Source: an uncultured bacterium (GTDB lineage Bacteria; CAYJRR01). Taken from it: a stretch of DNA of 47,411 bases. This document shows, piece after piece, positions 10,135-44,473 of the stretch; within the stretch, counting starts at the first letter, position 1, and each line of letters opens with the position of its first letter. The notes under the pieces are model-generated. The model saw only the letters and a list, made by a program, of their open reading frames with translations. It ran no database searches and was not told the origin of the DNA. The DNA is taken from NCBI GenBank assembly GCA_964372275.1, contig CAYJRR010000018.1, positions 1 through 47,411 of the forward strand, given 5' to 3'. A program made the translations under genes and the position numbers.

Positions 10135-10150
10135 TGGCACCGTCGTTGCT
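10135..10150 (+). promoter_or_regulatory. sigma54 (-24/-12) promoter
   Basis: TGGCACCGTCGTTGCT is near-consensus TGGCAC-N5-TTGCW, 51 bp before ATG 10202. Confidence 0.75.
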
Positions 10151-10201
10151 CCACCGTTGTGTCCGCCCGGTCACGCCGGCCGGCGGGTGGGGAACACCGA
10201 C

Positions 10202-10723
10202 ATGAAGACGATCCACGCGCTTCTTTCGAAATCGACGCTCGCCTGGACCGTGGCCATCGCGATGCTCTCGGCCTCGGTGGCCCAGGCCGATCCGCCGCCG
10301 ATCACCGCCGAGCGGTTGAACGTCGGACCCGAGGCGCTCGCTGCCGCTCGCGAACTGGTCGCCGAGCGCCGGCAGTACGATCGCGACTCGCTGCTGGGGC
10401 TTGCGGCGGCTACCGCCGGCTTTTCGGGCGCGGTCGTCGCAGCCGGTGTGACTGCCTCGGCCCTCACGCCGATCGGGCTCCTGATGGTCGGAATGGCCGG
10501 AGTGGCGACCATCTTCTACGCCGGACTGAAACGGGCAGAACGGAACCGGCGCGAAGCCCTTTATCGCGAACTCTTCGGCGAAGAGTTGGACCGCGCCCTC
10601 CTCCTGGCCGAATTCGAAGCGGATCAGGGGATCAACGTCCCTCGAGACGCCGATACCGTCGCGTCGTCGGCAGAGCCCGAGCGCCGGGGATTGACATCGC
10701 TCGGCGCCGGGATTCGACGCTGA
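10202..10723 (+). CDS. Exported hypothetical protein with hydrophobic Gly/Ala hairpin, ending GAGIRR
   Basis: Sec signal MKTIHALL...VAQA; hydrophobic stretch LLGLAAATAGFSGAVVAAGVTASALTPIGLLMVGMAGVATIFYAGL. Confidence 0.75.
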   Translation: MKTIHALLSKSTLAWTVAIAMLSASVAQADPPPITAERLNVGPEALAAARELVAERRQYDRDSLLGLAAATAGFSGAVVAAGVTASALTPIGLLMVGMAGVATIFYAGLKRAERNRREALYRELFGEELDRALLLAEFEADQGINVPRDADTVASSAEPERRGLTSLGAGIRR

Positions 10724-10801
10724 CGACTTGCAGAGGCCGAAATCGTGAGCACCGGTAGGTAGCGGCGGAGGCTGCACGCAAAGGTCGCGCGGGGGCGTAC
10801 G

Positions 10802-11398
10802 ATGATCGACGAGACGGCCGGAGCCGACCCAGCCATTCGCGCGTCGCGCGTGCCGAGCGAGAGCTACGTGCCGGACGGCGTGTGGGAGGAGGAGCGGATC
10901 ATGCGCGAGCGCGCCGCCCTGCCGCCGTCGTTCGACGCCGATTCGCTCCGCGTGCCGGTCACGCGTCTGAATCTACGTTCCCCGACGACGCTCCCCCACG
11001 ATGCGACCGTGCTGGAAGCGGTCCGTGCAATGCGCGGCGGAGGGTTCGGCTGCGTCCTGGTGGTAGCCCTCGGACGACTGGTCGGGATCGTCACCGAGCG
11101 GGACGTCCTCTCGCGCGTCGACCACGCGCCGGCGGACTGGCTGCGACACCCGCTTTCCTCGATCATGACCCCCGACCCGGAGACGCTGACCGAGAACGCG
11201 AACCTCGCCTTCGCATTGAACGTGATGACGGTGGGCGGCTTTCGGCACGTTCCGATCGTCGATGCCGACGATCGCCCCGTGGCGGTGGTCTCGATCCGGG
11301 ACATCGTGGCCTACATCTGCAGCTTCTTCCGCGAAGAGGTCGCCAACCTCCCTCCGCGGCCCTCCATCCTCCACCCCACCACCCGCGAGAGCGTGTGA
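10802..11398 (+). CDS. CBS-domain pair protein (paralog 1; true start may be GTG 10850)
   Basis: GCVLVV, LVGIVTERD, IMTPDPE, GFRHVPIVD, VVSIRDI. Confidence 0.88.
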   Translation: MIDETAGADPAIRASRVPSESYVPDGVWEEERIMRERAALPPSFDADSLRVPVTRLNLRSPTTLPHDATVLEAVRAMRGGGFGCVLVVALGRLVGIVTERDVLSRVDHAPADWLRHPLSSIMTPDPETLTENANLAFALNVMTVGGFRHVPIVDADDRPVAVVSIRDIVAYICSFFREEVANLPPRPSILHPTTRESV

Positions 11399-11538
11399 AC
11401 GTCGGGTGAACGGGTCGGTCCACCCGTTCGGGCTTCCTCGGGGCTCCCCGAACGCCTCGCCCGGGGCGGCCGCTTGGCTTCTGGTGGAGGGCCGGTGCTA
11501 ACATCCGGGACCCACACGATTCGGAGGCGGAGACGAGG

Positions 11539-12114
11539 ATGTCCAAGAAGCCCGGCCCGGAGAACGATTTCGTGGAGTCCTACCTCGGCGATGAAATGTA
11601 CGAAGAGGAGCGGATCATGGCGGAGCGCGCCGCCAAGCCCCGCACCTTCGACACCAACACGCTCAAGGCGCCGCTCCGGACGATCCACCTCCCGACGCCC
11701 GTCTTCGTCTCGGCGAAGACGACGATCGGCGACGCGATCAAGGCGATGCAGGAGGGACACTTCGGTTGCGTCCTGGTGGAACAGAGCGGAAAGCTCGCCG
11801 GGATCTTCACCGAGCGGGACGTTCTGTTCAAACTCGCCGGCAAAGGAAAGGACTGGGGCACGTCCACGGTCGGCGAGTTCATGACCCCGAACCCCGAATC
11901 GCTCCCGGCCGACGCGAGCTTCGCGTTCGCGCTCAACATGATGACCGAGCGGAGCTTCCGGCACATCCCGATCGTCGACAAGGAAGGCAAGGCGGTCGGG
12001 ATTCTGTCGATGCGCGACGTGATGAAGTACATCGCCGGCTTCTTCGAGAAGGAGGTCAAGAACCTCCCGCCGCGTCCCGACCTGCTGAATCCGACGAAGA
12101 CCGAAGGCGGATAA
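11539..12114 (+). CDS. CBS-domain pair protein (paralog 2)
   Basis: GCVLVE, LAGIFTERD, FMTPNPE, FRHIPIVD, GILSMRD; SD upstream. Confidence 0.9.
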   Translation: MSKKPGPENDFVESYLGDEMYEEERIMAERAAKPRTFDTNTLKAPLRTIHLPTPVFVSAKTTIGDAIKAMQEGHFGCVLVEQSGKLAGIFTERDVLFKLAGKGKDWGTSTVGEFMTPNPESLPADASFAFALNMMTERSFRHIPIVDKEGKAVGILSMRDVMKYIAGFFEKEVKNLPPRPDLLNPTKTEGG

Positions 12115-12134
12115 ACCCCCGCCACGTCGTGGCT

Positions 12135-12163
12135 TTGACTCGTTCCGACATTCGCGCTATGAC
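12135..12163 (+). promoter_or_regulatory. sigma70-type promoter of the nuoE-N operon
   Basis: TTGACT-N17-TATGAC, 9 nt before GTG 12173. Confidence 0.55.
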
Positions 12164-12172
12164 GCGCGTCCG

Positions 12173-12679
12173 GTGTCGGAAATCGCCTTCCAGGAAGCCG
12201 CCGAGCTGGAGATCCAGAAGACCCTCGCCCGCTATCCGAACAGGGCGGCCGCGACCCTCCCGGTGCTGTGGATCGCCCAGCGCCAGTTCGGATGGCTCTC
12301 CCCCGAGGTGCTGAAGCTCGTCGCCGACCGGCTCGAGCTTCCGGCCGCGCGCGTCGCCGGCGTGGCGAGCTTCTATACGATGTTCAAGCTCAAGCCGACG
12401 GGGAAGTTCCACGTCCAGATCTGCCGGAATCTGTCGTGCGCGATGCTCGGCGCCGAGCGGATCACCGAGCGCGTCTGCAAGAAGCTGAAGGTCAAGCCCG
12501 GCGAGACGACGGCCGACCGGCTCTTCACGGTGGAGCAGGTCGAGTGCCTGGCCGCCTGCGGCATCGCGCCGGTGGTGCAGATCAACGAGGAGTACCACGC
12601 CCGCATGGGGGGGGAGAAGCTCGACCAACTGCTCGACGTGTTGGTGGAGAACGAGAAGCGCAGCGGAGGGACGCCGTGA
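12173..12679 (+). CDS. nuoE: NADH-quinone oxidoreductase subunit E
   Basis: VASFYTMF, CRNLSC, ECLAACGIAP (2Fe-2S N1a ligands). Confidence 0.95.
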   Translation: MSEIAFQEAAELEIQKTLARYPNRAAATLPVLWIAQRQFGWLSPEVLKLVADRLELPAARVAGVASFYTMFKLKPTGKFHVQICRNLSCAMLGAERITERVCKKLKVKPGETTADRLFTVEQVECLAACGIAPVVQINEEYHARMGGEKLDQLLDVLVENEKRSGGTP

Positions 12680-13992
12680 CCGCGCCGGCGACGGGCGGCG
12701 CGGGCAGCAGCGACTTCCCGCGCGTCCTGACCTCGACCTGGGAGATACCCGACTCCTGGTCCTACGAGATCTACCGCGAACACGGCGGGTACCAGGCGCT
12801 TGCGAAGGCGCTCCGCGAGATGAAGCCCGACGACGTGGTCAACGAGGTGAAGACGTCGGGGCTGCGCGGGCGTGGCGGCGCCGGCTTCCCCACCGGCACC
12901 AAGTGGGGCTTCGTCCCGAAGGAGTCGAAGAGGCCGAAGTACGTCGCCATCAACGCCGACGAAGGGGAGCCGGGGACGTTCAAGGACCGGGAGCTCCTGG
13001 CGCGCGATCCGAACCGGATGGTCGAAGGGGCGCTGCTCACCGCCTACGCCATCGGCTCCAGCGACGTCTACGTCTACGTGCGCGGCGAGTTCTTCGCCGA
13101 GATCAAGAAGGTCGAATACGCCGTCGAGCAGGCCTACAAGCATGGCTGGGCGGGGAGGAACGTCAAGGGAAGCCCCTTCTCCTGCGAGATCCGCATCACC
13201 AAGGGGGCCGGCGCCTACATCTGCGGCGAGGAGACGGCGATGCTCTCCTCGCTCGAAGGCTGGAAGGGGTGGCCGAAGCTCAAGCCTCCGTTCCCGGCGG
13301 TGCAGGGGCTGTTCGGCGGACCGACCGTCGTCAACAACGTGGAGACGGTCGCCGCCGTGCCGTGGATCGTGACCCACGGCGGCAAGGCCTACGCCGCGAT
13401 CGGGACCGAGAAGTCGACCGGCACCCGGCTCTACGGCGCGTCGGGGCGGGTCAAGAAGCCGGGCGTCTACGAGCTTCCGATGGGCTACAACCTGAAGAAG
13501 TTCGTCGACGTCGTCTGCGGCGGATTGTCAGGACCCCGGCGGTTGAAGGCGGTGATCCCCGGCGGAAGCTCGACGCCGATCGTGACGGCCGAGGAGGCGG
13601 AGCGGGTCGGGCTGGACCACGAGTCGCTGGCGACGGTCGGCTCCTCGCTCGGCACCGGCGCGGTGATCGCGCTCGACGAGGGGGACTGCATGGTGCGGAC
13701 CCTGTCCACCTTCCAGAACTTCTACGCGCACGAAACCTGCGGGCAGTGCTCCCCCTGCCGCGAAGGGGTGCCGTGGATCGCCAAGATCTGCCGTCGCATC
13801 GAGAAGGGGAACGCCGAGCCGGACGAGGTCGACCTGCTGCTCCGGATCTGCGATCAGATGATGGGAAAGACGATCTGCGCCTTCGCCGACGGCGCCGGGA
13901 TGCCGGTCGTCTCCTACCTCAAGAAGTACCGGTCGGAGTTCGAGCTGCACATCCAGAACCGCGGCTGCCCGTATCCGGCGTGGGGGGGCTGA
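12676..13992 (+). CDS. nuoF: NADH-quinone oxidoreductase subunit F
   Basis: GTG overlaps nuoE stop; SGLRGRGGAGFPTG, NADEGEPGTFKDR, GAGAYICGEET, HETCGQCSPCREG. Confidence 0.97.
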   Translation: MTAPATGGAGSSDFPRVLTSTWEIPDSWSYEIYREHGGYQALAKALREMKPDDVVNEVKTSGLRGRGGAGFPTGTKWGFVPKESKRPKYVAINADEGEPGTFKDRELLARDPNRMVEGALLTAYAIGSSDVYVYVRGEFFAEIKKVEYAVEQAYKHGWAGRNVKGSPFSCEIRITKGAGAYICGEETAMLSSLEGWKGWPKLKPPFPAVQGLFGGPTVVNNVETVAAVPWIVTHGGKAYAAIGTEKSTGTRLYGASGRVKKPGVYELPMGYNLKKFVDVVCGGLSGPRRLKAVIPGGSSTPIVTAEEAERVGLDHESLATVGSSLGTGAVIALDEGDCMVRTLSTFQNFYAHETCGQCSPCREGVPWIAKICRRIEKGNAEPDEVDLLLRICDQMMGKTICAFADGAGMPVVSYLKKYRSEFELHIQNRGCPYPAWGG

Positions 13993-13997
13993 CGACG

Positions 13998-15608
13998 ATG
14001 CCGAAGATGACGATCGACGGCGTCGACTACGAGTTCAAGGCCGGGCAGACCGTCCTCCAGCTCGCGCACGAGAACGGGATCGACGTCCCCTACTTCTGCT
14101 ATCACCCGGGCCTGTCGATCGCCGGCAACTGCCGCATGTGCCTGGTCGAGGTCGAAGGGCAGAAGAAGCCGGACATCGCCTGCAACATGACCTGCCGCGA
14201 TGGGCTGAAGGTCCTGACGCAGACCGAGGGCGTCAAGAAGATGCGGGCCGGGGTGATGGAGTTCCTGCTGCTGAACCATCCGCTCGACTGCCCGGTGTGC
14301 GATCAGGCGGGGGAGTGCTGGCTGCAGGAGTACTACATGGACTACGCGCGGCATCCCTCGGCGCTGCGCGATCCGAAGGTCGAGAAGCGGAAGGTCGTAC
14401 CGCTCGGACCCCAGGTGATGCTCGACGCCGAGCGTTGCATCCTCTGCACCCGTTGCATCCGTTTCCTCGACGAGGTGACGCACACCTCGGAGTTGACGAT
14501 CGTCGACCGCGGAGGGCATGCCGAGATCTCCCTGTTCCCCGGCGGCCGGCTGGAGAACCTCTACAGCGCAAACGTCGTCGACATCTGCCCCGTCGGCGCG
14601 TTGACCAACCGCGATTTCCGCTTCCAGCAGCGGGTCTGGTTCCTCAAGACGACCGACTCGGTCTGCAACGTCTGTTCGAACGGCTGCAACCTGCACGTCG
14701 ATTCGAACGCCGTCGACCGCAACGTTCACCGCGTGCGTCCGCGCCGCAACGACGCCGTGAACGCCTTCTGGATGTGCGACCTGGGCCGGACGTGCCACAA
14801 GCCGACGCACGCCGAGACGCGGATCCCGCAGCCGACCTCGGGACGGCGGCCGGCGACGTGGCGCGCCGCCGCGGCCGACGTGGCGGAAGCGACCCGGCGC
14901 ATCGTCTCCCAGCACGGGTCGGAGGCGATCGCAGTCCTCGCCAGTCCCCACGCCACCAACGAGGCGCTCTGGGCGCTGAGCCGCTTCGCCGACGAAGTCC
15001 TCCGGACCCCGCTGATCGCCGTCGACGTCGACCCCGGAATGGAGGAGACGGCGCAGTCCGACGACCTCCTCCTCAAGGCCGACAAGACGCCGAACCGCTC
15101 CGGATTGGAGGCGATCGTTCCGGCACGGCGGGCCACGCCCTTCGCATCGATCCGGGAGGGGATCCTCGCCGGACGGATCCGGGGCCTGTTGGCGCTGGAG
15201 CGCGATGTCGTCCGGCTCTCGAAGAACCCCGACGAGGCGCGCGAACTGCTCTCGCGGCTGGAGCTCCTGGTTTCCATCGCCTCCAACCGCACCGAGACGA
15301 CGGAGCTGTCGCACGTCGTCCTGCCGGCGGCGACCTTCCTGGAGATCGACGGCACCTTCACCAACCACGCCGGTCACGTCCAACGACTGAAACCGGCCTT
15401 CCCGCCGCTCCACGACAGCCGTCCCTCGTGGGCGATCCTCGACTTCCTCGCCGCCGCCGTGCGCGCCGACGGTACGGGGCTGGGGTTCCGTTCGGCGGAG
15501 GCGGTCTTCGACGAACTCGGCCGCCGCGTCCCGGCCTTCGGCGGACTCTCCTTCTCGAAGATCGCGGCGGGCGGCGCGCCGCTTTCGAGCTCCGCGGCCG
15601 CCGCCTGA
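13998..15608 (+). CDS. nuoG: NADH-quinone oxidoreductase subunit G (short form, N7-type Cys motif)
   Basis: FCYHPGLSIAGNCRMC, NHPLDCPVCDQAGEC, RCILCTRC, DICPVGAL, CNVCSNGC...CDLG. Confidence 0.95.
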   Translation: MPKMTIDGVDYEFKAGQTVLQLAHENGIDVPYFCYHPGLSIAGNCRMCLVEVEGQKKPDIACNMTCRDGLKVLTQTEGVKKMRAGVMEFLLLNHPLDCPVCDQAGECWLQEYYMDYARHPSALRDPKVEKRKVVPLGPQVMLDAERCILCTRCIRFLDEVTHTSELTIVDRGGHAEISLFPGGRLENLYSANVVDICPVGALTNRDFRFQQRVWFLKTTDSVCNVCSNGCNLHVDSNAVDRNVHRVRPRRNDAVNAFWMCDLGRTCHKPTHAETRIPQPTSGRRPATWRAAAADVAEATRRIVSQHGSEAIAVLASPHATNEALWALSRFADEVLRTPLIAVDVDPGMEETAQSDDLLLKADKTPNRSGLEAIVPARRATPFASIREGILAGRIRGLLALERDVVRLSKNPDEARELLSRLELLVSIASNRTETTELSHVVLPAATFLEIDGTFTNHAGHVQRLKPAFPPLHDSRPSWAILDFLAAAVRADGTGLGFRSAEAVFDELGRRVPAFGGLSFSKIAAGGAPLSSSAAAA

Positions 15609-15612
15609 CGCC

Positions 15613-16932
15613 ATGGAACTCCTCTCCCGCCTGCTCGCCAATCCGCTGGTCGTCGCCGGCCTGAAGATCGCCTTCGTCCTCGGGTTCGTGCTGCAGGTCG
15701 TCCCGGTGATGGTCTGGCTGGAGCGGAAGGTCTGCGCCTACATCCAGGACCGGATCGGACCGAACCGCGCCACCGCGCTCAAGGCGATCCGGCTCGGCGG
15801 GATGGTCCACAGCCTCACCGACGCCATCAAGCTGGTGTTCAAGGAGGACGTGCGGCCGGCCAAAGCGCACCGTTTCTTCTACTGGCTGGCGCCGTTCCTG
15901 GTGGTGACCCCCGCCTTCCTGACGGTGGCGGTGATCCCCTGGGCCGACGACCTGCACGTGCCGCACGGCGAGTGGCTGCCGCCGGGACCGCTGCCGCTGC
16001 AGATCGCGCGACTCGACGTCGGCGTCCTCTACGTCTTCGCCATCGCCGGCCTCTCGGTCTTCGGGATCATGCTGGCCGGCTGGTCCTCCAACAACAAGTA
16101 CTCGCTCCTCGGAGGTCTGCGCAGCGCCTCCCAGCTCGTCTCCTACGAGATCGCGCTGACCCTGTCGGCGGTGAGCGTGATGGTGCTGTACGGCACGGTC
16201 CGGCTCGAGGAGTTCGTCCTGCTCCAGGAAGGATCGCCGCTCCACTGGGGCGTCGTCCGCCAGCCGCTCGCCTTCCTCGTTTTCCTGGTGGCGGTTTTTG
16301 CCGAATCGAATCGCCTGCCGTTCGACCTGCCCGAGGGGGAGAGCGAGCTGGTGGCCGGGTACCACACCGAGTACTCCGGGTTCAAGTTCGGGATCTTCAT
16401 GATGTCGGAGTACGTCCACATGGTCGTCGCCTCGGCGGTGGTGGCGGCGATCTTCCTCGGCGGTTGGCAGGTGCCGTTCCTCCCGACCTCCACGCTCCGG
16501 CAGCACCCGGAGACGGTGGTGCGGGCGATCGTGGCGGCGCACGCCCTTCCGCTCGCCATCCTCTCCGTCGTTCTCTTCCGTCGGCACCTCGCCGGCCCGA
16601 GGAGGTTCGGCGATCTCCGGGACCAGGAGCCGGCGATCTTCGCCGTCGTGACGGCGGGGCTTTCGCTGGCGGGGGTGGCGTTCCTGCTCCTCGGTCTCCC
16701 GGGCGCTCTCTCTCCCTTGGCCGGCCAGGCGGCGGTGGCCCTGCTGCAGTTCATGACGTTCGTGGCGAAGATGGGGATCTTCCTCTTCCTCTTCATCTGG
16801 GTCCGATGGACGCTGCCGCGGTTCCGCTTCGACCAGGTGATGGCGCTCGGCTGGAAGCGGTTGATGCCGCTGGCGCTGGCCAACATCGTCGTCACCGCGG
16901 CCTACGTGCTGTGGCGGGAGGGGACGGCATGA
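15613..16932 (+). CDS. nuoH: NADH-quinone oxidoreductase subunit H
   Basis: ERKVCAYIQDRIGPNR, SNNKYSLLGGLR, RLPFDLPEGESELVAGYHTEYSG, RWTLPRFRFDQ. Confidence 0.96.
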   Translation: MELLSRLLANPLVVAGLKIAFVLGFVLQVVPVMVWLERKVCAYIQDRIGPNRATALKAIRLGGMVHSLTDAIKLVFKEDVRPAKAHRFFYWLAPFLVVTPAFLTVAVIPWADDLHVPHGEWLPPGPLPLQIARLDVGVLYVFAIAGLSVFGIMLAGWSSNNKYSLLGGLRSASQLVSYEIALTLSAVSVMVLYGTVRLEEFVLLQEGSPLHWGVVRQPLAFLVFLVAVFAESNRLPFDLPEGESELVAGYHTEYSGFKFGIFMMSEYVHMVVASAVVAAIFLGGWQVPFLPTSTLRQHPETVVRAIVAAHALPLAILSVVLFRRHLAGPRRFGDLRDQEPAIFAVVTAGLSLAGVAFLLLGLPGALSPLAGQAAVALLQFMTFVAKMGIFLFLFIWVRWTLPRFRFDQVMALGWKRLMPLALANIVVTAAYVLWREGTA

Positions 16933-17651
16933 ACGCCGCGGACCTCGTCTTCTACCTCTTCGCCGGGCTCGCGGTCGCGGCGTCGGTCGGCGTGGCGATC
17001 TCGCGCAACCCGATGGTCGCCGCGACGTCGCTCCTGCTGTCGCTTTTCTCGGTCGCGGCGCTGTTCGCCTGGGCGGGGGCCCACTTCCTGGCGGCGATGC
17101 AGGTGCTGGTCTACGCCGGCGCGATCGCCGTCCTGTTCGTCTTCGTCATCATGCTGTTGAACCTCCGCCCCGGAGAGCTGGGCGGACGCGATTGGCAGCC
17201 GTCGCACGCCGTGGCGCTGGTGCTCGTGGCGCTCGTCCTGGGTGCTCTGTCGGCCGCGGCCACACGCGCCGCGAGCCGCTTCCCCGCGCTGCGCGACGAG
17301 ACCGGGTTCGGCACGACCGCGGTGGTCGGCCGAGCCCTGCTGACCGACTACCTCGTCCCGTTCGAAGTGATCTCCCTCCTCCTGGTGGCGGCAATGGGAG
17401 GGGCGGTGATGCTCACCAAGCGCGCGCAGGTCGGGGAGGCGCTCGACGCAATCGATCGCGCCCGCCGCCGGATCGATCCGCTGTCTCGGAAGCGCGCCTT
17501 CGTCCCCGACCCCACGTTGCCCGACCAGCAGGGGTTGCCGCCGCGCCAGGTGGCGAAGGCTGCATCCGCGGGAACGGGCGAGTCCGCCGAGCCGGAGGCG
17601 CCGCTCGCCGGAATCGTTCCGCGGCCGCTCGAACCGGGGGAGACACTGTGA
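16929..17651 (+). CDS. nuoJ: NADH-quinone oxidoreductase subunit J
   Basis: ATGA overlap with nuoH; QVLVYAGAIAVLFVFVIMLL, YLVPFEVISLLLVAAMGGAV; long C-terminal tail. Confidence 0.93.
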   Translation: MNAADLVFYLFAGLAVAASVGVAISRNPMVAATSLLLSLFSVAALFAWAGAHFLAAMQVLVYAGAIAVLFVFVIMLLNLRPGELGGRDWQPSHAVALVLVALVLGALSAAATRAASRFPALRDETGFGTTAVVGRALLTDYLVPFEVISLLLVAAMGGAVMLTKRAQVGEALDAIDRARRRIDPLSRKRAFVPDPTLPDQQGLPPRQVAKAASAGTGESAEPEAPLAGIVPRPLEPGETL

Positions 17652-17956: not shown

Positions 17957-17959
17957 GGC

Positions 17960-19972: not shown

Positions 19973-19973
19973 C

Positions 19974-28417: not shown

Positions 28418-30019
<1,602 letters not shown>

Positions 30020-35277: not shown

Positions 35278-35290
35278 GCGCTCGGACATG

Positions 35291-35331: not shown

Positions 35332-35341
35332 CCGAAATCAA

Positions 35342-35532: not shown

Positions 35533-35538
35533 AGGGAC

Positions 35539-35567
35539 AGGCTACCGCGGCCACGCCCCCCTCGCAA
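35539..35567 (-). promoter_or_regulatory. sigma70 promoter of 6S RNA
   Basis: TTGCGA-N17-TAGCCT, 6 nt before the predicted 5' end. Confidence 0.65.
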
Positions 35568-35594
35568 GCGGCGGTCCGACCATCGGGCTTCTTC

Positions 35595-38500
35595 CTAGAA
35601 CGCCTCTTTCATTTCACGGGTGATCTCGCGCACGTAGCGGTCGAGGCCGAGGTCGCGCGCGTAGCTGAGCGCGCGCACGTAGTGTTGGTTGGTCGGCCCG
35701 ACGCGGCGCGCCATCTTGTAGGCGTTCCCCAGCAAGAGCTCGGCCTGCAGCAGTCCCAGCTTGTCGGGCTGGTCCTTCTCCCACCGGGCCACCGCCGATT
35801 CGAGCGTGCGGATCCCCTCCTGCAAGTCGGTGGTGTAGGCGGCGAGCGCCGCGAGGTAGACCGACGCCAGGTTGTACAGCGCGCTCAGTCCGAAACGCTG
35901 CGCCAGCGTCTGTCCCTCGACGAGCAACGCCTGCGCCGGCGCGTACTGCCGCGCCTTGAGATGGGCCTTGGCGAGCAGACACAGCAGGCGGATCGTGCCA
36001 TCGACATCCCCCGTCTCCCGGGCGAGCTCCAACGCCTCGCGCAACAGGTTCTTCGCCTCCTCGAGCTCGCCTTCGTCGACCTGCATCGAGCCGAGCGATT
36101 CGTAGGTGCGCATCAACGCCCGCTTCTCGCCGATCTTCTTCCAGATCGCGGCGGCCATCCCCCACATCTTGATCGCCGCCGGGTAGTCGCCGAGTCTCTC
36201 CTGGATCATCCCCAGTTCGTCGCGCGCGGCTCCGACGCGACTCGATTCCCGGAGCTCCTCGGCAAGCTCCAGGGCATCGCGACATCGCCGGAGCGCCCGG
36301 TTGGCATCTCCGGCGACGCGCAACTCGATCGCCACCTTCAGCTCCAGGTCGACCAGTTCCCGCTGCCGGCGGAGTTTGAGACCTTCGTCGGCCACCCGCT
36401 CGAGCTCTTCCTGGGCCAACCGGCGCGCGCGCTCGAAGTGCTCGGCGGCGACCTCCCGGCGGCCGCGCCGCACCGCCTCTTCGCCGAGCGCCTGTTCGAC
36501 GTCGATCAGCATCGACGGCTCGTCCGCCGCCTCGGCGGCCGCCCGGGCGCGGTCGATCGCCACCCGTGCGCGGTCGAGCTCCCCGGCGTTGCTCAACAGC
36601 TCCGCGTGGCGGAGGTGGGCCCGCCCGCGAAGCGCCGGCGGCGCGTCGGCGAGCAGGGTACACGCCTGTTCGGAGGCGGCGAGAAGCGCGCCCCCCGCCC
36701 CTTCGACCAGAAGCGACTGCGCCGCGCGCTCGAGCGCCTCGAGCGCGAGGATCCGTTCGCCGGCGGCGAGGTAGTGCCCGAACTGGGATGGCGCGTGGTC
36801 GAGGCGCGCCAGATCGGGAAGGTCGGCGATCGCCTGGGCGATTCGGCGACGGATGGCGGCCGACTCCTCCTTCGGCAACGACGGGGCCGCGGCATCGCGG
36901 AACGCCCGGTGGGTGAAACGCCACGTCCGCGCCGTCTCGCGAAGCGACCCTTCTTCCGGCTGAACGATCCCCGCTTGCGCCAGCGGATCGAGCGAGGATT
37001 CGATTTCGTTGCCGGCCGCCGCGGCGAGAATCGACGCGTCGAAACGCTCCCCGATGACCGCCGCGATCGACGCCACGCGCATCGCCCCCTCGGGAAGCTT
37101 GGCCAGGACGTCGGCGGCCAGCATCGCCGTCGTCGCCGGCACGTAGAGCGCGTCGGGCGCGCCGTCGAACAGAACCCTCCCCTTCTTCACCTTGAGTGCG
37201 CCCGTGCCGAGCAGGAAGCGGATCACCTCCCGCACCCGGAACGGATTGCCCGCCGACTTCGACTGGATCAACGCCGCGATCGGCCCCGCCAGCTCCTCCA
37301 CCTCGAGGACCTCGCAGGCGAGCTTCTCCACCGCCTGGCTCGAAAGCGGCTTGAGCCCGATCCGGTGGAAGCGGCCCGCCGCCGCCGCGCCGCGCACGAA
37401 CGCCCTCTCTTCGTCGGAGACGGTCGCCATCACCAGCACCGGGAACCCGGAAAGACCGGCGGCGAGGTGGTCGAGGACGCCTCGCGAAAGCTCGTCGGCG
37501 ATGTCGAGGTTGTCGACCGCCATGATCATCGGTCGTTCGCGCGCCAGGTTCTGTATGATCTTCTCGATCGCCGCGGTCAACGCGCGCCGCCGTTCCGGCC
37601 CGCGGAACGAATCGATCGAGCTGCCGGTGTAGGCGAGGCCGAACAGGGCCCCGACGAAGTGCTGCTCCGCCGGAGACAGACCGAGTTGCGCCAGCCGCGC
37701 CAGACGCTCGCGCATCACCTCTTCGGTATCGCCGCCGCGGATGCCGACGACCCCTCGCAACAGGTCCCGCACCGTCGAATAGGGCGCGGCGGTCAGCTCG
37801 GGCGCGGCGCGCCCGACGTAGAACGCCACCTCCATCTCGCGCGAGACCTGCATCAGCTCGGCGAGGAGCCGGCTCTTTCCGATCCCGTCCTCGCCGACCA
37901 GGAGCAGGATCTGCCCTTCCCCCTTGGCGACCTTCCCGAGCGTTTCCCGGATTTCGCGCAGCTCCTCCAATCGGCCGACCAGGCGTCCTTCGCTCCCGAT
38001 CGCCGTGCCGGCCGATCCGGCGTCGACCGCTTGGGTGTTCCGCGTCCGCTCGTCTGCGGACCTGGGAACGGCGGCGTGGTGCTCGGGCGTCAACCGCCCT
38101 CCCAGCGACGCCGCCTTCGCCGATTCGGTGCGCTGCTTGCGTTCGAGCGCACGCCCTTCGATCTTGGTCGGTTCGTCCGCCGAGGAGGTGCGCAGGCGGC
38201 GCCGGCGACTGGCGGAATCGCTGACGCCGGTCAACGGTGCCCGGTTCGATTTGGGCTCGCCGATCTCCTCGATGGCGTTCACGAACGCGTCGAAGTCGGT
38301 GGTGCGGTCGATCTCCCCCTCGGAGGGGCCGAGCACCTTCGCCACCCAGGCCGAGAGCTCCGAGCCTCCGACCTTCTCGCCGGAGGAGAAGAGGTACGAC
38401 GTGAGGTCGTCGTAGAGCTCGCTGGCCCACTGGTACCGGCGGGTGACGTCGCGCTCGAGCGCCCGGAAGACGATCGCCTCGAGCGGAGGCGTCACCTCCG

Positions 38501-39248
38501 GATTGATCCGTGAGGGCGGGGTGATCGGTGCGGTTTGCACCCGCTTCAGCGTCTCGATGTCGTTCTTCGCCTTGAACAGGCGCGTACCGGTGAGCGCTTC
38601 GTAGAGCACGATCCCGAGCGAGAAGACGTCGCTTCGCCGGTCGATCGACTCGCCACGCGCCTGTTCCGGGCTCATGTAGGCGAACTTCCCCCGGATGATC
38701 CCGCTGCGCGTGATGTTCACCTTCGACGTGGCCCGGGCGATCCCGAAGTCGGTGATCTTCACCTCCCCGGCGTGGCTGACCAGGACGTTGTGCGGGCTGA
38801 TGTCCCGGTGGACGATCGCCAGGTCCCGCCGCTGCGCGTCCTTCCGGCGGTGCGCGTAGTCCAGCCCCTTGGCCACTTCGCTGGCGATGTAGACCATGAA
38901 GTTGACCGGCACGCCGCGGCGGGTCGTCCGCGCCGTCTCCACCAGCGACTTCAGATCGGTTCCGTCGACGTACTCCATCGCGATGAAGTAGTCGTCGTCC
39001 TGGCTCCCCAGGTCGAAGATCTGGACGATGTTGATGTGCGAAAGGGTGCTCGCGATCTTCGCCTCGTCGATGAACATCTCGACGAACTTCTTGTCGCTCG
39101 CCAGGTTCGGAAGGATCTTCTTGATGACGAGCGTCTTCTCGAACCCGGCGACGCCGTAGCTCTTCGCCCGGTAGACCTCCGCCATCCCCCCGGTCGCGAT
39201 CCGGTCGACCAGGTGGTACTTCCCGAAGATCATCGGTTCAACGGCCAT
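35595..39248 (-). CDS. Ser/Thr protein kinase with AAA/STAND-type ATPase and TPR repeats
   Basis: IATGGMAEVY, HRDISPHN, DFG, YMSPE; Walker A GEDGIGKS, Walker B-like MAVDNLD; C-terminal helical repeats. Confidence 0.92.
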   Translation of the reverse strand: MAVEPMIFGKYHLVDRIATGGMAEVYRAKSYGVAGFEKTLVIKKILPNLASDKKFVEMFIDEAKIASTLSHINIVQIFDLGSQDDDYFIAMEYVDGTDLKSLVETARTTRRGVPVNFMVYIASEVAKGLDYAHRRKDAQRRDLAIVHRDISPHNVLVSHAGEVKITDFGIARATSKVNITRSGIIRGKFAYMSPEQARGESIDRRSDVFSLGIVLYEALTGTRLFKAKNDIETLKRVQTAPITPPSRINPEVTPPLEAIVFRALERDVTRRYQWASELYDDLTSYLFSSGEKVGGSELSAWVAKVLGPSEGEIDRTTDFDAFVNAIEEIGEPKSNRAPLTGVSDSASRRRRLRTSSADEPTKIEGRALERKQRTESAKAASLGGRLTPEHHAAVPRSADERTRNTQAVDAGSAGTAIGSEGRLVGRLEELREIRETLGKVAKGEGQILLLVGEDGIGKSRLLAELMQVSREMEVAFYVGRAAPELTAAPYSTVRDLLRGVVGIRGGDTEEVMRERLARLAQLGLSPAEQHFVGALFGLAYTGSSIDSFRGPERRRALTAAIEKIIQNLARERPMIMAVDNLDIADELSRGVLDHLAAGLSGFPVLVMATVSDEERAFVRGAAAAGRFHRIGLKPLSSQAVEKLACEVLEVEELAGPIAALIQSKSAGNPFRVREVIRFLLGTGALKVKKGRVLFDGAPDALYVPATTAMLAADVLAKLPEGAMRVASIAAVIGERFDASILAAAAGNEIESSLDPLAQAGIVQPEEGSLRETARTWRFTHRAFRDAAAPSLPKEESAAIRRRIAQAIADLPDLARLDHAPSQFGHYLAAGERILALEALERAAQSLLVEGAGGALLAASEQACTLLADAPPALRGRAHLRHAELLSNAGELDRARVAIDRARAAAEAADEPSMLIDVEQALGEEAVRRGRREVAAEHFERARRLAQEELERVADEGLKLRRQRELVDLELKVAIELRVAGDANRALRRCRDALELAEELRESSRVGAARDELGMIQERLGDYPAAIKMWGMAAAIWKKIGEKRALMRTYESLGSMQVDEGELEEAKNLLREALELARETGDVDGTIRLLCLLAKAHLKARQYAPAQALLVEGQTLAQRFGLSALYNLASVYLAALAAYTTDLQEGIRTLESAVARWEKDQPDKLGLLQAELLLGNAYKMARRVGPTNQHYVRALSYARDLGLDRYVREITREMKEAF

Positions 39249-39429
39249 GCGGATCGCGATCGACGATGGCCGTCACGTTCGTCGTTGTATCCGCCGCGCC
39301 CGCCACGGTCAAGGAAGCCACCCCCCGTGGGTCCCGCCCCCTCCAGGACCGCAGAGAAAAAGTCGCGGAACCGCATCCTAAACGAGACATCTTGGCGCGA
39401 ATGCGACAGCCAGCCGAGTACAGATTCCG

Positions 39430-39517
39430 TATTACTTTTTTATATTAATTACTTACTCAATTCGACCCGGCGTGCGAAAGACGACCAACTGGACCCGTTC
39501 GGGGCACGCAGATTGCT
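39430..39517 (+). promoter_or_regulatory. IHF-like AT tract plus sigma54-type promoter
   Basis: TATTAATTACTTA (39443-39455, one mismatch to WATCAANNNNTTR) and GGGCACGCAGATTGCT (39502-39517, GG-N10-GC). Confidence 0.65.
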
Positions 39518-39546
39518 CATTATCCCCTTCGTCTGGGGGATCGCCG

Positions 39547-40914
39547 ATGAAGGGTCGAATCGCGCGCCGGATACTCCTACCGCTCTTGCTCGCCCTTCCA
39601 GGGGTGGCTCTTGCGGACGGGGGGAATACCGGTCCCTCCGATCCGAACGTTACCTTCAACGGAACGACATTCAAGCGGGACAGTGTCCATCAGCGGCCCG
39701 CGATCAACTCCAAGAAAGGCCACACCCTTCCCGGCGGTCGCACGAGCGCCAACGGCTGGGCCGTCAACAGCGATCCGGTCGTCGCCGAGAATCGGAACCG
39801 CCGCTTATACGACAAACGCAACGGTCAGTTCCTCAGCCAGAGCCAAGCCGAAGCGGCCAAGCGTTCGAGCAAATACTACGAGGCCGGAACCGGCGTCACG
39901 CTCTTCGAGCTCAAGACCGGCACGCAGGACATCAACGGCAACTACCAGCCCGATGCCACGGGCCTGAACGCCGGCGGGTTCAAGGACGGCCGTTACAACA
40001 TTCTCCACGAGGCCGGCAGTCCGAACGCAGGAACGATTCCGAATCGTCTCAGCGTCGACGTTCTGCGGGCCGAAGGCCAGGGGACAGTCAAGGTCGGCGT
40101 CATTCCGGGTGGCGTCGCGGCGGCGGCCCAGCTTCGAGGGCAGGCGACGCTGATCGGTCTCAGCGGCGAATACACGCGTTCGTTCGGCGATTCAGATTCG
40201 ATCAACACGGCACAGGTTTCGACGAAGGGTCAGGCCTTCGTCGGAGCCGCCGGCGAACTGCAGGCGGTAGCAAACGTGTCCAATCGCGGCGCGTTGCTCA
40301 CCGGCCGTGCCGGCGCCTTCGTCGGTGGCCGGGCGGAGGGCGAGGCGGGAGGGTCGGTGACGATCTGCGGCGTCCAGATCGGCGCCAAGGGGGTCGGCGA
40401 AGTCAGCTACGGCCTTGGTGCAGCCGCCGAAGGCTACATGGTCGTCAACTGGAGCACGATGACCGTGAAGTTCGGCGGCCGCGCCGCGGCGACGCTAGGG
40501 TTGGGCGCTGGCGTTGGCGGCGAGGTCGAGATCTCCCTCCAGAAGGTGCTCGAGAATCCGGCGATGGCGGCCCGCTGCGCTCTTCAGCCGCTGGCCGATC
40601 TCGCCGTGGCGGCCTATGAGACCGGGCGCGACCTGGTCCTCGCAGCGCGCGATCTCGGCGCGCAGGGGATCGAGCAGCTCACCAATGCCTACGACGCGGT
40701 GTCGAGTTATGTCGGCGACACGCTCAGCCAGGCGAGCGACTTCGTCTCCAACGGCATCCAGAGCCTCTGCTTCTGGTGCAGCAAGAGCGCGCCGGCGCCG
40801 AACGCGGTGGCAACCAACTCCCAGGGACTGCAACTCCCCCGGAACTCGAGAACCGTGGTGAGCGGCCCCTCGCAACCGGGCTCGGGCGGCCCCAGCATCG
40901 GTCTCCGCCGCTAG
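39547..40914 (+). CDS. Exported Gly/Ala-rich beta-strand protein (paralog A), ending SIGLRR
   Basis: Signal MKGRIARR...GVALA; long AGAFVGGRAEGEAGG-type region; homologous to 43300-44394. Confidence 0.85.
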   Translation: MKGRIARRILLPLLLALPGVALADGGNTGPSDPNVTFNGTTFKRDSVHQRPAINSKKGHTLPGGRTSANGWAVNSDPVVAENRNRRLYDKRNGQFLSQSQAEAAKRSSKYYEAGTGVTLFELKTGTQDINGNYQPDATGLNAGGFKDGRYNILHEAGSPNAGTIPNRLSVDVLRAEGQGTVKVGVIPGGVAAAAQLRGQATLIGLSGEYTRSFGDSDSINTAQVSTKGQAFVGAAGELQAVANVSNRGALLTGRAGAFVGGRAEGEAGGSVTICGVQIGAKGVGEVSYGLGAAAEGYMVVNWSTMTVKFGGRAAATLGLGAGVGGEVEISLQKVLENPAMAARCALQPLADLAVAAYETGRDLVLAARDLGAQGIEQLTNAYDAVSSYVGDTLSQASDFVSNGIQSLCFWCSKSAPAPNAVATNSQGLQLPRNSRTVVSGPSQPGSGGPSIGLRR

Positions 40915-41013
40915 GGTCGAGGGCACGGTTCCGGTTTCGAACGCGCCGGCGAGCGCGTCCTACCGTGGCGTTCGCCCGCGCGCGTCGACTCGGGTGCTAC
41001 ACTCCGAATCACG

Positions 41014-42297
41014 ATGGTTCCGGGTTGGCTCCGCCGGCGAATCGGTCGAACGATCGCGAGCGCGGCGGCGCTGCTCCTCCTCCCGCGGGCCGAAACGGCG
41101 ATGGCGGCGTCCGGACAGCGATACTTCCAGGAGGCCGAGGCGGCGCTCGCGCGCAACGACCTCGGCACCGCCAAGGAGAAGATCGTCCAGGGCCTCGAGC
41201 TCGAGCCGGATCACGCCAACGCGATGGTCAACCTGGCGAACATCCACCTGCTGGAGAAGAACAAACGCGAAGCCAAGGCTTGGTTCGACCGCGCGCTCAA
41301 GATCGACCCGACCAACGCGATCGGACTCAACGGCCGGGCTCTGCTTCACCTGGAGGACGGAAACTTCGACAAGGCGGTCGAGATGTTCGTCGCCGCGACC
41401 AAGTCCGATCCGACCAATCCCACGCCTGTCGTCAATCTCGGCGATCTTTCGATCCGGCTCGGGGACGCGGTCAACGCCATTCGCTACTACGACCTCGCGC
41501 TCCAGATCGATCCGACGAACGTGCGGGCGACGTTGCAATTGGCGGAGCTCCAGGCCGCGGCCGGATTCGGCGAGAAGGCGGTCGAGCTCGCCGAATCGGT
41601 CCTCAAGCGGCAGCCCAAGAACTTCACCGCCATGGCCGCGGCGGGAAAGGGCTACGCCGCCAAAGGGAACTGGCTTCGCGCGGTCGACCTCCTCTTCGAC
41701 GCCGCCAAAGGGATGCCCAAGGACGACTCGGTCCGCTTCGCGCTGGGCGTGGCGTTGATGAACTCGCGTCAGTTCAACGCCGCGGCCGACGCCTTTCTCG
41801 AGGCCCTCGACCTGAACGACGCCGATCCGAGATTGCACCTGCAGCTCGGGATCGCCTACTACATGTCCGGAAACCCGGAGCTCGTCGACTACGCACGGAA
41901 GGAGTTCCAGCACTCCCTCGACCGCAATCCGACGGCCGACGACCGCGCGTCGGTCCACTACCACCTCGCACTGATCGCCGACGATGCGGGGAAGTTCGCG
42001 GACGCGATCAAGAGCTACGAGCAGGCGCTGCGGTTCAAGCCGCAACACGTGGGCGCCTCCAACAACCTCGGCCTGATCTACGCGCAGCAAGGAAAGTTCA
42101 GGGAGGCCGTCCCGTTCTACCAGCGGGCGCTCAAGTCGGACCCCGCGTTCACGGCGGCCCGATTCAACCTCGGCTATGCGTTTCTCCGCCTCGGTCAGGA
42201 GAAGGAGGGGCGCGCCGAGCTGGTGAAGCTGATGTCGCTGCCCGACGGCGATCCGTTCAAGAACCAGGCGAAGGAGATCCTGGCGGGTCGGCCTTGA
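41014..42297 (+). CDS. Exported tetratricopeptide-repeat protein
   Basis: N-terminal signal-like segment; about ten TPR-like repeats (ALKIDP, NNLG, FNLG). Confidence 0.9.
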   Translation: MVPGWLRRRIGRTIASAAALLLLPRAETAMAASGQRYFQEAEAALARNDLGTAKEKIVQGLELEPDHANAMVNLANIHLLEKNKREAKAWFDRALKIDPTNAIGLNGRALLHLEDGNFDKAVEMFVAATKSDPTNPTPVVNLGDLSIRLGDAVNAIRYYDLALQIDPTNVRATLQLAELQAAAGFGEKAVELAESVLKRQPKNFTAMAAAGKGYAAKGNWLRAVDLLFDAAKGMPKDDSVRFALGVALMNSRQFNAAADAFLEALDLNDADPRLHLQLGIAYYMSGNPELVDYARKEFQHSLDRNPTADDRASVHYHLALIADDAGKFADAIKSYEQALRFKPQHVGASNNLGLIYAQQGKFREAVPFYQRALKSDPAFTAARFNLGYAFLRLGQEKEGRAELVKLMSLPDGDPFKNQAKEILAGRP

Positions 42298-43060
42298 GCC
42301 GCCACGCAACGGCGAAGGTCCCGGCCGTGAGACCCGCGAACGCGAGCTCCATAGCCACGAGCAGCGACAGCGCGCGCGACGCCGGTCCCTCCTCCAGGGC
42401 GACGTTCGCCGGCACGTAGAAGGCACGCACAACCGCGTCGACGACGGCGTGGACCGCAACCGCGGCCGCGAACGCGCCGACGCGAGCCGCGCCTCCGCTC
42501 CTCGACGCCGCGCGCACCGCCCAGGCGGAGATCGACACGTGGAAGACGATGGCGATCCACCGCTCGACGGCGCTCATCAACGGGAGCAGCGGCATGTTCA
42601 CCGCCCATGCGCCCGCTTCCGACGACAGCGTCTGCGCGAATTCCGAAGCCGCCCGAAGGCCGACGAGGGCGGATTCCATCGCCCCCCAGCCGAGTCCGAA
42701 GAGGAGACCGGTCTCCAACGGCCGGCAGCGGCCCGCACGCCGGAAGATTGCCGAGCAGGCGCCGAATCGGATCGACTCCTCGGCCACCCCCGCGAGAAGT
42801 CCCACCCCCAGCGCGTGCAGGAGGAGCGACCCGGCGAGACCGTCGCCCAGGATCGGCTGCAGCCCGGCCATGAGCGCGAGCTGCTTCGCGATCCAGGCCA
42901 GCAGGAACAGGCCGGCCCCGGCCGCCGCCCCGGAAAGCCCGGCCGCCCGGACGCCGCACCGATCGCGCGGACGGCGCACGAGCGCGACGACGCCGACCAC
43001 GATTGGAGGGGCGACGAGCTGGGCGACGAGGGTGGCGATCGCCGCGACCAGGAAGAGCAT
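42257..43060 (-). CDS. YhfC/PrsW-like glutamic-type intramembrane protease
   Basis: AGVAEESIRF (EExxR), GLGWGAMES, ERWIAIVFH, HAVVD; multiple TMs. Confidence 0.8.
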   Translation of the reverse strand: MLFLVAAIATLVAQLVAPPIVVGVVALVRRPRDRCGVRAAGLSGAAAGAGLFLLAWIAKQLALMAGLQPILGDGLAGSLLLHALGVGLLAGVAEESIRFGACSAIFRRAGRCRPLETGLLFGLGWGAMESALVGLRAASEFAQTLSSEAGAWAVNMPLLPLMSAVERWIAIVFHVSISAWAVRAASRSGGAARVGAFAAAVAVHAVVDAVVRAFYVPANVALEEGPASRALSLLVAMELAFAGLTAGTFAVAWRLKADPPGSPSPGS

Positions 43061-43146
43061 CGCGCCGGAGACGATACCATCCGGGACAGAAATCTGTTGC
43101 GGGCCGCCGGCCGCTTTCCTAGATTCACCGCCTCTCGAGCACCGAC

Positions 43147-43228
43147 GCCCGGGTGGTGAAATTGGTAGACACGCTAGCTTGAGGGGCTAGTGGGTAAAAC
43201 CGTGCTGGTTCGAGTCCAGTCCCGGGCA
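43147..43228 (+). tRNA. tRNA-Leu (GAG)
   Basis: gcccggg/cccgggc acceptor stem, D loop TGG, anticodon arm ctagc-ttGAGgg-gctag, long variable arm, GGTTCGAG; CCA not fully encoded; TTGCGG-N17-TAGATT upstream. Confidence 0.97.
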
Positions 43229-43299
43229 CCCGACACGAGGAGAAGCGGCGCCGGCCTTCACGGGCCAGCGCCGCCATCCACTTCCCCTTCGTGCGATCG

Positions 43300-44394
43300 T
43301 TAGCGCCGCATCCCGATCCCCGCGCCGGGGACCGAAGCGATCGACGGCCCACTTCGCGTCGAGGCGCTCCGTTCGATCTGCGTTCCGGTTCGGCGCGGCC
43401 CGTCGAGGAAGCGGGCGAGGTGCAGAACCGAAACGGCCGCCGGCTCCGACATCGCGTTGCGGATGGCCGTCACCGCGCGGGAGAGCGGGCGAACCCCGGC
43501 CTCCCCCAGGATCCGCAACCCCTCCGCGAGATCGACGCCGCGCCGACGCACGAAGGCCGCCGCCTTCCCGAGGCCGCGCTCGAGGCACTCCTTGGCGACC
43601 TTCGGATCGTTCAGCAGCGCCTCCAGCGAGAGCTCGTGCTCCACGCCGGCACCGATCCCCAGCCCGGCGGTCAGCGCGGCCCGACCTCCGTAGCGGACGG
43701 TCATCGTCGACCAGTCGAGCTCGAAGGCGTAGCGCGCCTCCGCGCCGATCCCGTAGCTCGCGTTCCCCGTCACCTTCAGGGCATTGGAGATCCCGCATAG
43801 GGTGATCGATCCGCCCGTCTCGCCGGAGACCTTCCCCCCCGCGAAGGCGCCGGCATCGAGCTCCGCCACCGCGCCGTTCTCGCTCAGGCCGATCGCCCCG
43901 CCCGCCTCGGCCTCGGATCCGATCATCGCCTCCCCCGCGGTGAAGACGCGGGCGTTGTTGAGGTCGTCGCCGATCTGTCGAGCGTAGTCGACGCGCGCGC
44001 CGGCGACGATCGCGCGGGCCTGGACGCGACCCGACGCGGAGCTCGTCCCGATCCGACCCTCGGCCGACGCCTCGGCACGGAGCAGCTGGACGGCGAACGA
44101 GCCATGTTCGCCCTGGAACGCCGCCTCTCCGGTGCCTCCGAGTCCCCGTTCGAGCGTCGCCTCGGCGTCCCGAATCGTCGCGTCCGCGAGGCGGGAGCCG
44201 ATTCGATTTCCAGTGCGCTTGTCGTAGACCTCCCCGTCGGCGGTTTCGGCGAGGAACGCCGACGGTTCGGTTCGCCAGGAGCGAACCGTCGGGCGTGGAT
44301 GCGAGAACTCCTTCGCCGACGATTCGGCCGGACGCGCGAACGATCCGGCGACGACGGCGGCGACGACGACGAGCATGCGGCCGAAGGCGTTCAT
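43300..44394 (-). CDS. Exported Gly/Ala-rich beta-strand protein (paralog B), ending GIGMRR
   Basis: Signal MNAFGRMLVV...; shares YDKRxG, GAFxGG, GSxTxCG, SYGxGA, WSTMTV, GGRAA with paralog A; SD GGGAGG. Confidence 0.85.
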   Translation of the reverse strand: MNAFGRMLVVVAAVVAGSFARPAESSAKEFSHPRPTVRSWRTEPSAFLAETADGEVYDKRTGNRIGSRLADATIRDAEATLERGLGGTGEAAFQGEHGSFAVQLLRAEASAEGRIGTSSASGRVQARAIVAGARVDYARQIGDDLNNARVFTAGEAMIGSEAEAGGAIGLSENGAVAELDAGAFAGGKVSGETGGSITLCGISNALKVTGNASYGIGAEARYAFELDWSTMTVRYGGRAALTAGLGIGAGVEHELSLEALLNDPKVAKECLERGLGKAAAFVRRRGVDLAEGLRILGEAGVRPLSRAVTAIRNAMSEPAAVSVLHLARFLDGPRRTGTQIERSASTRSGPSIASVPGAGIGMRR

Positions 44395-44418
44395 CAGAAA
44401 CCTCCCGACGCCTCCAGG

Positions 44419-44473
44419 AGCGGATCGCGGGCCCGACCGAAGAAGAAAAATCACTTTATTTATGAATAAGTTA
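44419..44473 (-). promoter_or_regulatory. Degenerate sigma54-type element plus IHF-like AT tract
   Basis: Minus-strand GGGCCCGCGATCCGCT (GG-N10-GC) 24 nt before ATG; TATGAATAAGTTA at 44461-44473. Confidence 0.4.

Follow-up and report, generated by a model that had tools for sequence, protein, structure and literature searches.

A proteome-wide, two-part C-terminal tag on exported proteins of an uncultured bacterium

The window analysed here, 47,411 nucleotides in length, is the entire contig C18 of an uncultured bacterial genome (G000; 4.64 Mb in 225 contigs, 70% G+C, 94.6% complete; contigs are cited below by their C numbers). Three genes in the window, designated A, B and C, encode proteins that end in the same bipartite tag. 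The tag is composed of a box, G-[SA]-N-V-x-R-x-A-x-T, a linker of 18-25 residues and a free C-terminus, G-[AV]-G-x-x-R-COOH. It is about 28-35 residues long, with about 30 being typical. This tag has not been described previously; it is proteome-wide and lineage-restricted, and is carried by about 60 Sec-exported proteins. It is real, strictly C-terminal, modular across unrelated folds, restricted to proteins with signal peptides and conserved in orthologues. The three genes and their tags are as follows.

10202-10723, + strand: gene A, 173 residues, ending SLGAGIRR (from translation)
Residues 1-29 of A: signal peptide, a Sec-type N-terminus
10391-10528 (approximately residues 64-109 of A): Gly/Ala-rich two-segment hydrophobic hairpin, from hydropathy, with a charged helix and the tag after it
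10628-10720, + strand: tag of A, residues 143-173; GINVPRDADT, linker, LGAGIRR-COOH; profile match of 42.3 bits
39547-40914, + strand: gene B, 455 residues, with a signal peptide, ending GGPSIGLRR (from translation)
Layout of B: beta meander at residues 167-330, long helix at 349-400, LCxWC motif, then the tag
40825-40911, + strand: tag of B, residues 427-455; GLQLPRNSRT, linker, GPSIGLRR-COOH
43300-44394, - strand: gene C, 364 residues, with a Sec-type N-terminus, ending GAGIGMRR (from translation)
43303-43386, - strand: tag of C; GTQIERSAST, linker, GAGIGMRR-COOH; profile match of 38.9 bits

A first-pass annotation of the window had reported these three genes, with signal peptides and the endings LGAGIRR, PSIGLRR and GAGIGMRR, and the translations agree with it. 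Gene C is a paralogue of gene B (32% identity over 337 residues). Sequence comparison finds no relationship between A and either B or C, so paralogy does not explain the shared tail, as the annotation had argued. The boxes of B and C are slightly degenerate. On the window contig, a profile of the tail matches the tails of A, B and C only.

Genes were predicted across the genome with a simple codon-likelihood caller, which gave 3895 genes covering 88% of bases. Among these 3895 proteins, the ending G-[ILMV]-R-R occurs 13 times, compared with 0.49 expected from the internal frequency (Poisson p ~1e-14), and the ending G-[AVG]-G-x-x-R 45 times, compared with 0.79 expected. The strict bipartite regular expression has 51 matches among the proteins and none in 2825 control windows, which are protein-internal and end in R. 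When recognisable variants are included, the carrier set contains 59 proteins, or approximately 1.5% of the proteome. The tag that the first-pass annotation had proposed, G-[ILM]-R-R, is therefore real but was drawn too narrowly. It is one end of a bipartite unit of about 30 residues, the box GxNVxRxAxT was missed, and R-R is one variant of x-R.

The box residues, counted among 53 proteins, are G in 53, N in 45, V in 33, R in 51, A in 28 and T in 48. At the end of the 59 tails, the first G is present in 45, A or V in 44, G at -4 in 58 and the last R in 58; near-invariance is confined to these two positions. The box lies 28-49 residues from the C-terminus (median 31), and the lower limit of 28 is sharp. 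The linker is at least approximately 18 residues long and non-hydrophobic (A 18%, G 16%, P 14%, S 11%, T 9%, R 9%, L 2.4%, F 0.4% and Cys 0.1%), and its sequence is not conserved. Matches to the box are concentrated at protein ends, with 40 of 48 proteome-wide matches inside the last 60 residues. The Gly, Arg and stop codons differ freely across the 59 tails, and the DNA past the stop codon is unrelated. This codon variation and the unconserved downstream DNA indicate that selection acts on the protein. Stop-codon usage of the tagged genes equals the genome background.

The first-pass annotation had also not recognised the tag as a described sorting signal. This is borne out by searches of Pfam and NCBIfam, in which no model matches 27 tails at E <= 10 apart from a lone VPEID-CTERM row (E = 0.15) that is taken as chance. 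A literature search returned no description of the motif, within a coverage that excludes supplements and subscription journals and in which motifs are not searchable by meaning.

With signal peptides and tails removed, the 59 carriers form 19 phmmer clusters. These are 27 small hairpin proteins, eight Cys-containing proteins, the five-member B/C family, one trio, one pair and 14 singletons. The largest class, to which gene A belongs (27/59), is built from a signal peptide, a charged helix, the Gly/Ala-rich two-segment hydrophobic hairpin, a helix and the tag. Gene A has no Pfam or NCBIfam family match, and a search of 5.8e9 proteins returned no homologue beyond the query itself. Neither a single tail nor protein A gave a usable match in the ESM Atlas.

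The carriers span at least three unrelated folds or architectures. In the AlphaFold2 model of B, six beta strands of 20-25 residues form a meander that is followed by a 50-residue helix. The predicted local distance difference test score (pLDDT) is 70-85 in the beta part and <50 in the tail. A Foldseek search of the PDB with this model has no match at E <= 0.001, its weak rows being mainly outer-membrane beta-barrels, and a PDB sequence search with the B family has no match. The C109 family, with eight members, is modelled by AlphaFold2 as tandem OB-like barrels (pLDDT 75) with a disordered tail (pLDDT <50). This model resembles tandem-OB proteins in the PDB at E ~1e-4 with low TM-scores, and a homologue search with the C109 family finds the query itself only.

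Among 27 carriers scanned there is no Pfam domain, the only rows being two weak ones (E 0.002-0.006). One carrier is an M23 peptidase relative, and some carriers have tag-free paralogues of known fold, namely M23 peptidases and beta-propeller proteins. The suggestion in the first-pass annotation that the proteins are effectors for predation or competition finds no direct support here. The builds that can be named are small two-helix membrane hairpins, a tandem OB-fold, a beta meander and the single M23 peptidase relative.

The carriers are exported proteins. By a strict heuristic, 48 of the 59 have a signal peptide, compared with 881 of 3836 other proteins (p = 9e-21), so the enrichment among signal-peptide proteins anticipated from the window holds genome-wide. 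By eye, signal peptides are present in 58 of 59. The 11 proteins missed by the heuristic have a signal peptide at a nearby start, with the exception of C4:11945, which appears to be N-terminally truncated. In the 55-residue protein encoded at C8:47744-47911 (+), a signal peptide and one Cys are followed by nothing except the tag.

The tagged genes are also associated with sigma-54-type promoter elements. Each gene was scored by the best match to TGGCAC-N5-TTGC[TA] in the 250 nucleotides upstream, over 11 positions, and a score of >=9 was taken as positive. The elements of the three window genes are as follows.

10135-10150, + strand: sigma-54-type element of A, TGGCAC-N5-TTGCT; 11/11; 51 nucleotides before the ATG
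39502-39517, + strand: sigma-54-type element of B, GGGCAC-N5-TTGCT; 10/11; 29 nucleotides before the ATG
44434-44419, - strand: weak GG-N10-GC upstream of C, GGGCCC-N5-CCGCT; 7/11

The first-pass annotation had placed a GG-N10-GC element upstream of each gene, and all three are present at those positions. Support as promoters extends to the elements of A and B. The element of C is unsupported as a promoter because 7/11 is the modal background score of the genome. The B and C elements are each immediately preceded by a short, strongly AT-rich tract, at 39428-39470 and 44452-44490, in surroundings of 65-70% G+C; these could be sites for bending proteins of sigma-54 promoters.

Genome-wide, a score of at least 9/11 is found for 34 of 59 tagged genes and 169 of 3688 others (p = 5e-29), which bears out the predicted co-occurrence of tail and sigma-54 motif. 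Untagged signal-peptide genes reach this score in 85 of 871 cases (p = 1e-17 for tagged genes against these). In 33 of the 34 positive tagged genes, the element is located 12-81 nucleotides before the start codon. Tagged genes are mostly solitary and are preceded by gaps of 100-400 nucleotides. The genome encodes an RpoN-like N-terminus and approximately 44 NtrC-like or receiver homologues. Judged from these motifs, the tagged genes are most likely part of a large sigma-54-dependent regulon.

The tag is rare outside this genome. The tail profile has no match in 40 unrelated genomes, in the five RpoB-nearest genomes, in 401 Myxococcota genomes (17 candidates scored per genome) or in further sets of 22 and 101 genomes, about 570 in total. 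Against 1.84e9 representative proteins it has 13 matches at E <= 0.001, of which 11 are from the genome itself and two are outsiders. One outsider is an 84-residue protein with two boxes that ends GGGQPR, and the other is a repeat protein with INVPRTxxTT units. Since the tag was found in so few genomes, phylogenetic profiling was impossible.

Orthologues of B retain the tail, as the first-pass annotation would require. Five B homologues are found among 5.8e9 proteins, and a Joint Genome Institute (JGI) metagenome scan adds one orthologue, alone on its contig, and one distant domain match. In all six homologues the box is retained together with an end of the G..R type (ITR, ISR, IDR and QKR, and RN in two); conservation covers the last Arg but not the penultimate one. 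In an alignment of ten B-family members, columns G427, T436, G452 and R455 are invariant. In most members of the family, the tag opens with a Pro-rich stretch that directly follows an L-C-x-W-C motif (window 40750-40790).

A profile of the B family finds relatives in 12 of the 401 Myxococcota genomes. In two of these other Myxococcota genomes, G307 and G377, the B-like genes have a variant tail, GYN[VA]PLxxxT ... RQAYPH-COOH. A third, G212, has two B-like genes, both of which are tail-free. The variant tail is also present in a mini-protein of G307 (L134 530-934, also delimited as 728-934, +), in which only the tag follows the signal peptide and a Cys. Taken over the B-like genes and this mini-protein, the variant reads GxNVPLxAxT ... 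RQAYPH-COOH. Tag-only mini-proteins thus occur in two genomes (C8:47744 and L134), both behind strong sigma-54 motifs. All three tailed genes of G307 and G377 have an upstream sigma-54 motif, with scores of 10, 9 and 11 of 11, and neither of the two untailed B-like genes of G212 has one within 300 nucleotides. The co-occurrence of tail and sigma-54 motif in these three genomes involves small numbers, yet it is independent of the discovery genome.

We lean towards the interpretation that the tag is a shared recognition handle in the envelope, acting after Sec export and read by one envelope factor. Conservation at alternate residues of the box points to a strand in extended form, and a disordered linker ties the box to the second motif, G-[AV]-G-x-x-R at the free C-terminus. 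Carriers would be exported by Sec first and would then be recognised through the tag by a common envelope factor, which could sort, secrete, retain or process them. We infer both the dedicated partner that reads the tag and the subsequent fate of the protein. The second export step named in the first-pass annotation was likewise a conjecture.

Parts of this arrangement are familiar from other systems. Colicin translocation domains carry N-terminal Tol or TonB boxes in a disordered segment, act on the target cell and have no signal peptide. The new tag resembles them in having two short epitopes in a disordered segment rich in Gly, Ser, Ala and Pro, and one of the two shows the every-other-residue pattern of a strand. 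It differs in being C-terminal and on exported proteins, whereas the colicin motifs are N-terminal and free of signal peptides. The peroxisomal targeting signal PTS1 is read by PEX5, and C-terminal tags read by TPR or PDZ domains are cytosolic, eukaryotic and without a second box. As with these signals, the free C-terminus is essential and a few fixed positions are counted from the end; unlike them, the new tag is on exported bacterial proteins and has a second box.

Several observations weigh against a common envelope reader. No reader, sortase or transporter for the tag was identified in the genome, and the only families that recur beside tagged genes are abundant regulators and glycerolipid acyltransferases. 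Inner-membrane hairpin proteins, for which no further export is needed, may account for about half of the carriers. The tag is known from one near-complete genome and a few metagenome contigs. Untagged genes with a score of at least 10/11 within 150 nucleotides of the start number 82, many of them encoding lipoproteins or secreted proteins, so the promoter link is not exclusive to the tag. No convincing shared activator site was found among k-mers between -200 and -10 of the 34 promoters, the best being TCCCGA in 16 of 34 compared with 29 of 167. The window stretch is contained in four DNA metagenome runs from two studies, with no RNA run listed.

A more far-reaching proposal is correspondingly more tentative. 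The two-motif address tag, which lacks a transmembrane part, may represent a new sigma-54-wired envelope pathway of deep-branching Myxococcota, for outer-membrane export, surface retention or peptide release, with the tag-only peptides as regulators or signals. Short C-terminal tags common to unrelated exported proteins have previously led to sortase, exosortase, rhombosortase and myxosortase. The new tag is without the membrane-spanning part that those systems require, so its reader probably works differently. The tag annotates about 60 hypothetical proteins, and its pairing with sigma-54 promoters, seen beyond a single genome, provides an experimental handle on regulation.

It is also conceivable, if unlikely, that the tail itself is the product. 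A releasable peptide (a signal, a core like that of a ribosomally synthesised and post-translationally modified peptide, or a pro-peptide) would be cut at or near the box, so that many precursors feed one pool, which could be sensed by kinase/activator pairs driving the same sigma-54 promoters. The tag-only mini-proteins with their strong upstream motifs, and the 84-residue outsider with two boxes, are what such a scheme would lead one to expect. Sigma-54 activator and kinase genes adjoin several tagged genes, an adjacency that may be due to chance in families of approximately 44 members. Given the unconserved linker, each precursor would release a different peptide, and no modifying enzyme or peptide exporter recurs nearby.

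We consider it improbable that the tag is a degenerate tripartite sorting signal of the MYXO-CTERM or PEP-CTERM type, cut at the box by an intramembrane sortase-like protease, with the terminal Arg or Args holding the tail during translocation. The candidate protease is encoded in the window, between B and C.

42257-43060, - strand: YhfC-like intramembrane protease gene (CPBP superfamily; PF10086), downstream of C

The protein matches PF10086 at 28.9 bits (cut-off 24.2; E = 1e-6) over residues 80-140 only. EExxxR and H motifs are seen by eye, and the gene is single-copy in the genome. Myxosortases are described as CPBP-family enzymes, which favours such a protease. Searches with the YhfC-like query gave no match in 201 Myxococcota genomes, in G307 and G377, which have tailed B-like genes, or in G212, and a PDB sequence search found no relative of solved structure. 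A link between this gene and the tag is doubtful. CPBP-type genes beside secreted membrane-active proteins can be immunity genes, which would explain the YhfC-like neighbour locally.

The tag has the same plan and dimensions as these sorting signals, with a signature, about 20 residues and a basic end. With MYXO-CTERM it shares occurrence on exported proteins, a Gly-rich signature, the spacing of about 20 residues, the Arg end and the same phylum-level neighbourhood. The two coexist in the genome, which uses MYXO-CTERM on other proteins; one such tail, GSCDVGR, is close to the box GSNVGR. The MYXO-CTERM model TIGR03901 matches 0 of 27 tails, yet four other proteins of the genome are above its cut-off and approximately 20 further MYXO-CTERM-like tails occur elsewhere. 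The new tag has neither the invariant Cys nor the transmembrane helix of MYXO-CTERM, and its linker, with little Leu or Phe and much Pro and Arg, is not hydrophobic. One MYXO-CTERM-like tail is in the window, in the 738-residue product of the gene at 45129-47345 (-), which ends with GCRAALARPG..., a hydrophobic stretch and RSRRRHR.

The likeness to PEP-CTERM extends to genomic organisation. In both systems a genome encodes dozens of exported proteins that are small, lineage-specific and share a short C-terminal tag with a basic end; most of the genes are solitary, with long intergenic regions before them, and most have a sigma-54 -24/-12 motif upstream. In the original description, PEP-CTERM genes are single-gene units with a sigma-54 motif upstream of 99 of 167 (Haft et al. 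2006, PMC1569441), compared with 34 of 59 here. Both the Pro-Glu-Pro motif and the hydrophobic helix are missing from the new tag. The PEP-CTERM model TIGR02595 has no match in 27 tails (E <= 10) or in the genome, and the control genomes are also without a positive. No exosortase (EpsH, TIGR02602) matches at E <= 0.01 in the 94.6%-complete genome, and no protein is above the cut-off for PrsT, a member of the PrsK-PrsR-PrsT set that regulates the PEP-CTERM system.

Equally improbable is a C-terminal degron or quality-control handle that is read by a periplasmic PDZ-type or tail-specific protease and gives the sigma-54-induced proteins a short, regulated lifetime. Free C-termini with fixed positions are what PDZ domains and tail-specific proteases read, and the tag is disordered and strictly requires a free C-terminus, from which positions 0, -3 and -5 are fixed. 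These proteases usually favour non-polar C-termini, and in a simple degron a distant second box, kept no closer than 28 residues, would be superfluous.

Encapsulin cargo-loading peptides are a very improbable explanation. Loading peptides end in a G-x-hydrophobic-R-R-type sequence (Myxococcus EncB/C/D), similar to the endings seen here, and a shell gene is present in the genome.

C87:3061-3942: Linocin_M18 encapsulin shell gene, 190.9 bits

Encapsulin cargo is cytoplasmic, which conflicts with signal peptides on 58 of 59 carriers and with the many membrane hairpins. Loading peptides have no counterpart of the upstream box, 59 cargo types would be unprecedented and the ferritin-like gene beside the shell gene, where cargo is usually encoded, is tag-free. 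Within C87:2010-4289, the shell gene is flanked by this 116-residue ferritin-like gene upstream and by a 342-residue gene downstream.

A functionless by-product of 70% G+C composition, of a DNA repeat at gene ends or of paralogy can hardly be credited: Arg is the most frequent final residue genome-wide (755/3895) and 137 proteins end in RR, but the excess of both endings over expectation, the empty control windows, the synonymous codon variation, the unconserved flanks, the unrelated folds and the absence of the tag profile from about 570 scanned genomes, many of them G+C-rich Myxococcota, all argue against it.

One further window gene accompanies the B family.

41014-42297, + strand: gene for an exported TPR protein with Pfam TPR matches, downstream of B

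An orthologue of the TPR gene directly follows a B-like gene in G307, G377 and G212 (32-33% identity, E 1e-49 to 1e-59). The TPR protein was considered as a receptor for the tag and rejected, because in G212 its gene stands directly behind a B-like gene that has no tail. From this gene order, the TPR protein is predicted to go with the B family rather than with the tag. An uncontrolled complex prediction that paired residues 31-427 of the TPR protein with an alignment of tails scored 0.00.

Elsewhere in the genome, five of the seven copies of PF01553 glycerolipid acyltransferases are located within three genes of a tagged gene (C8:22103-24940, C31:17094-18425, C21:21237-22040, C21:26627-28195 and C91:15183-16595), compared with a background of 7.6% (binomial p ~5e-5 in a post hoc test). 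Two of the five share one tagged neighbour, and orientations are mainly convergent; the pattern is unexplained. These proteins are PlsB- and PlsC-like, and one is fused to a HAD-IB domain. The 82 untagged genes with strong sigma-54 motifs include two Flp-type pilins, one type IV pilin and rpoN itself.

The N-terminal half of RpoB has 71% identity to Cystobacter and to a Myxococcales metagenome-assembled genome. A taxonomy search for relatives returned, at phylum level, this genome alone. The RpoB identity and the MYXO-CTERM tails fit a myxobacterium-like organism, possibly of a deep-branching Myxococcota lineage. The distant relative of the B beta-domain in the JGI scan (L107 4377-6985; 36% identity over 107 residues) has no signal peptide or tail. 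Its neighbours on that contig are a weak WXG100 match and DcrB-like and EspG-like genes, a type VII secretion (ESX) context.

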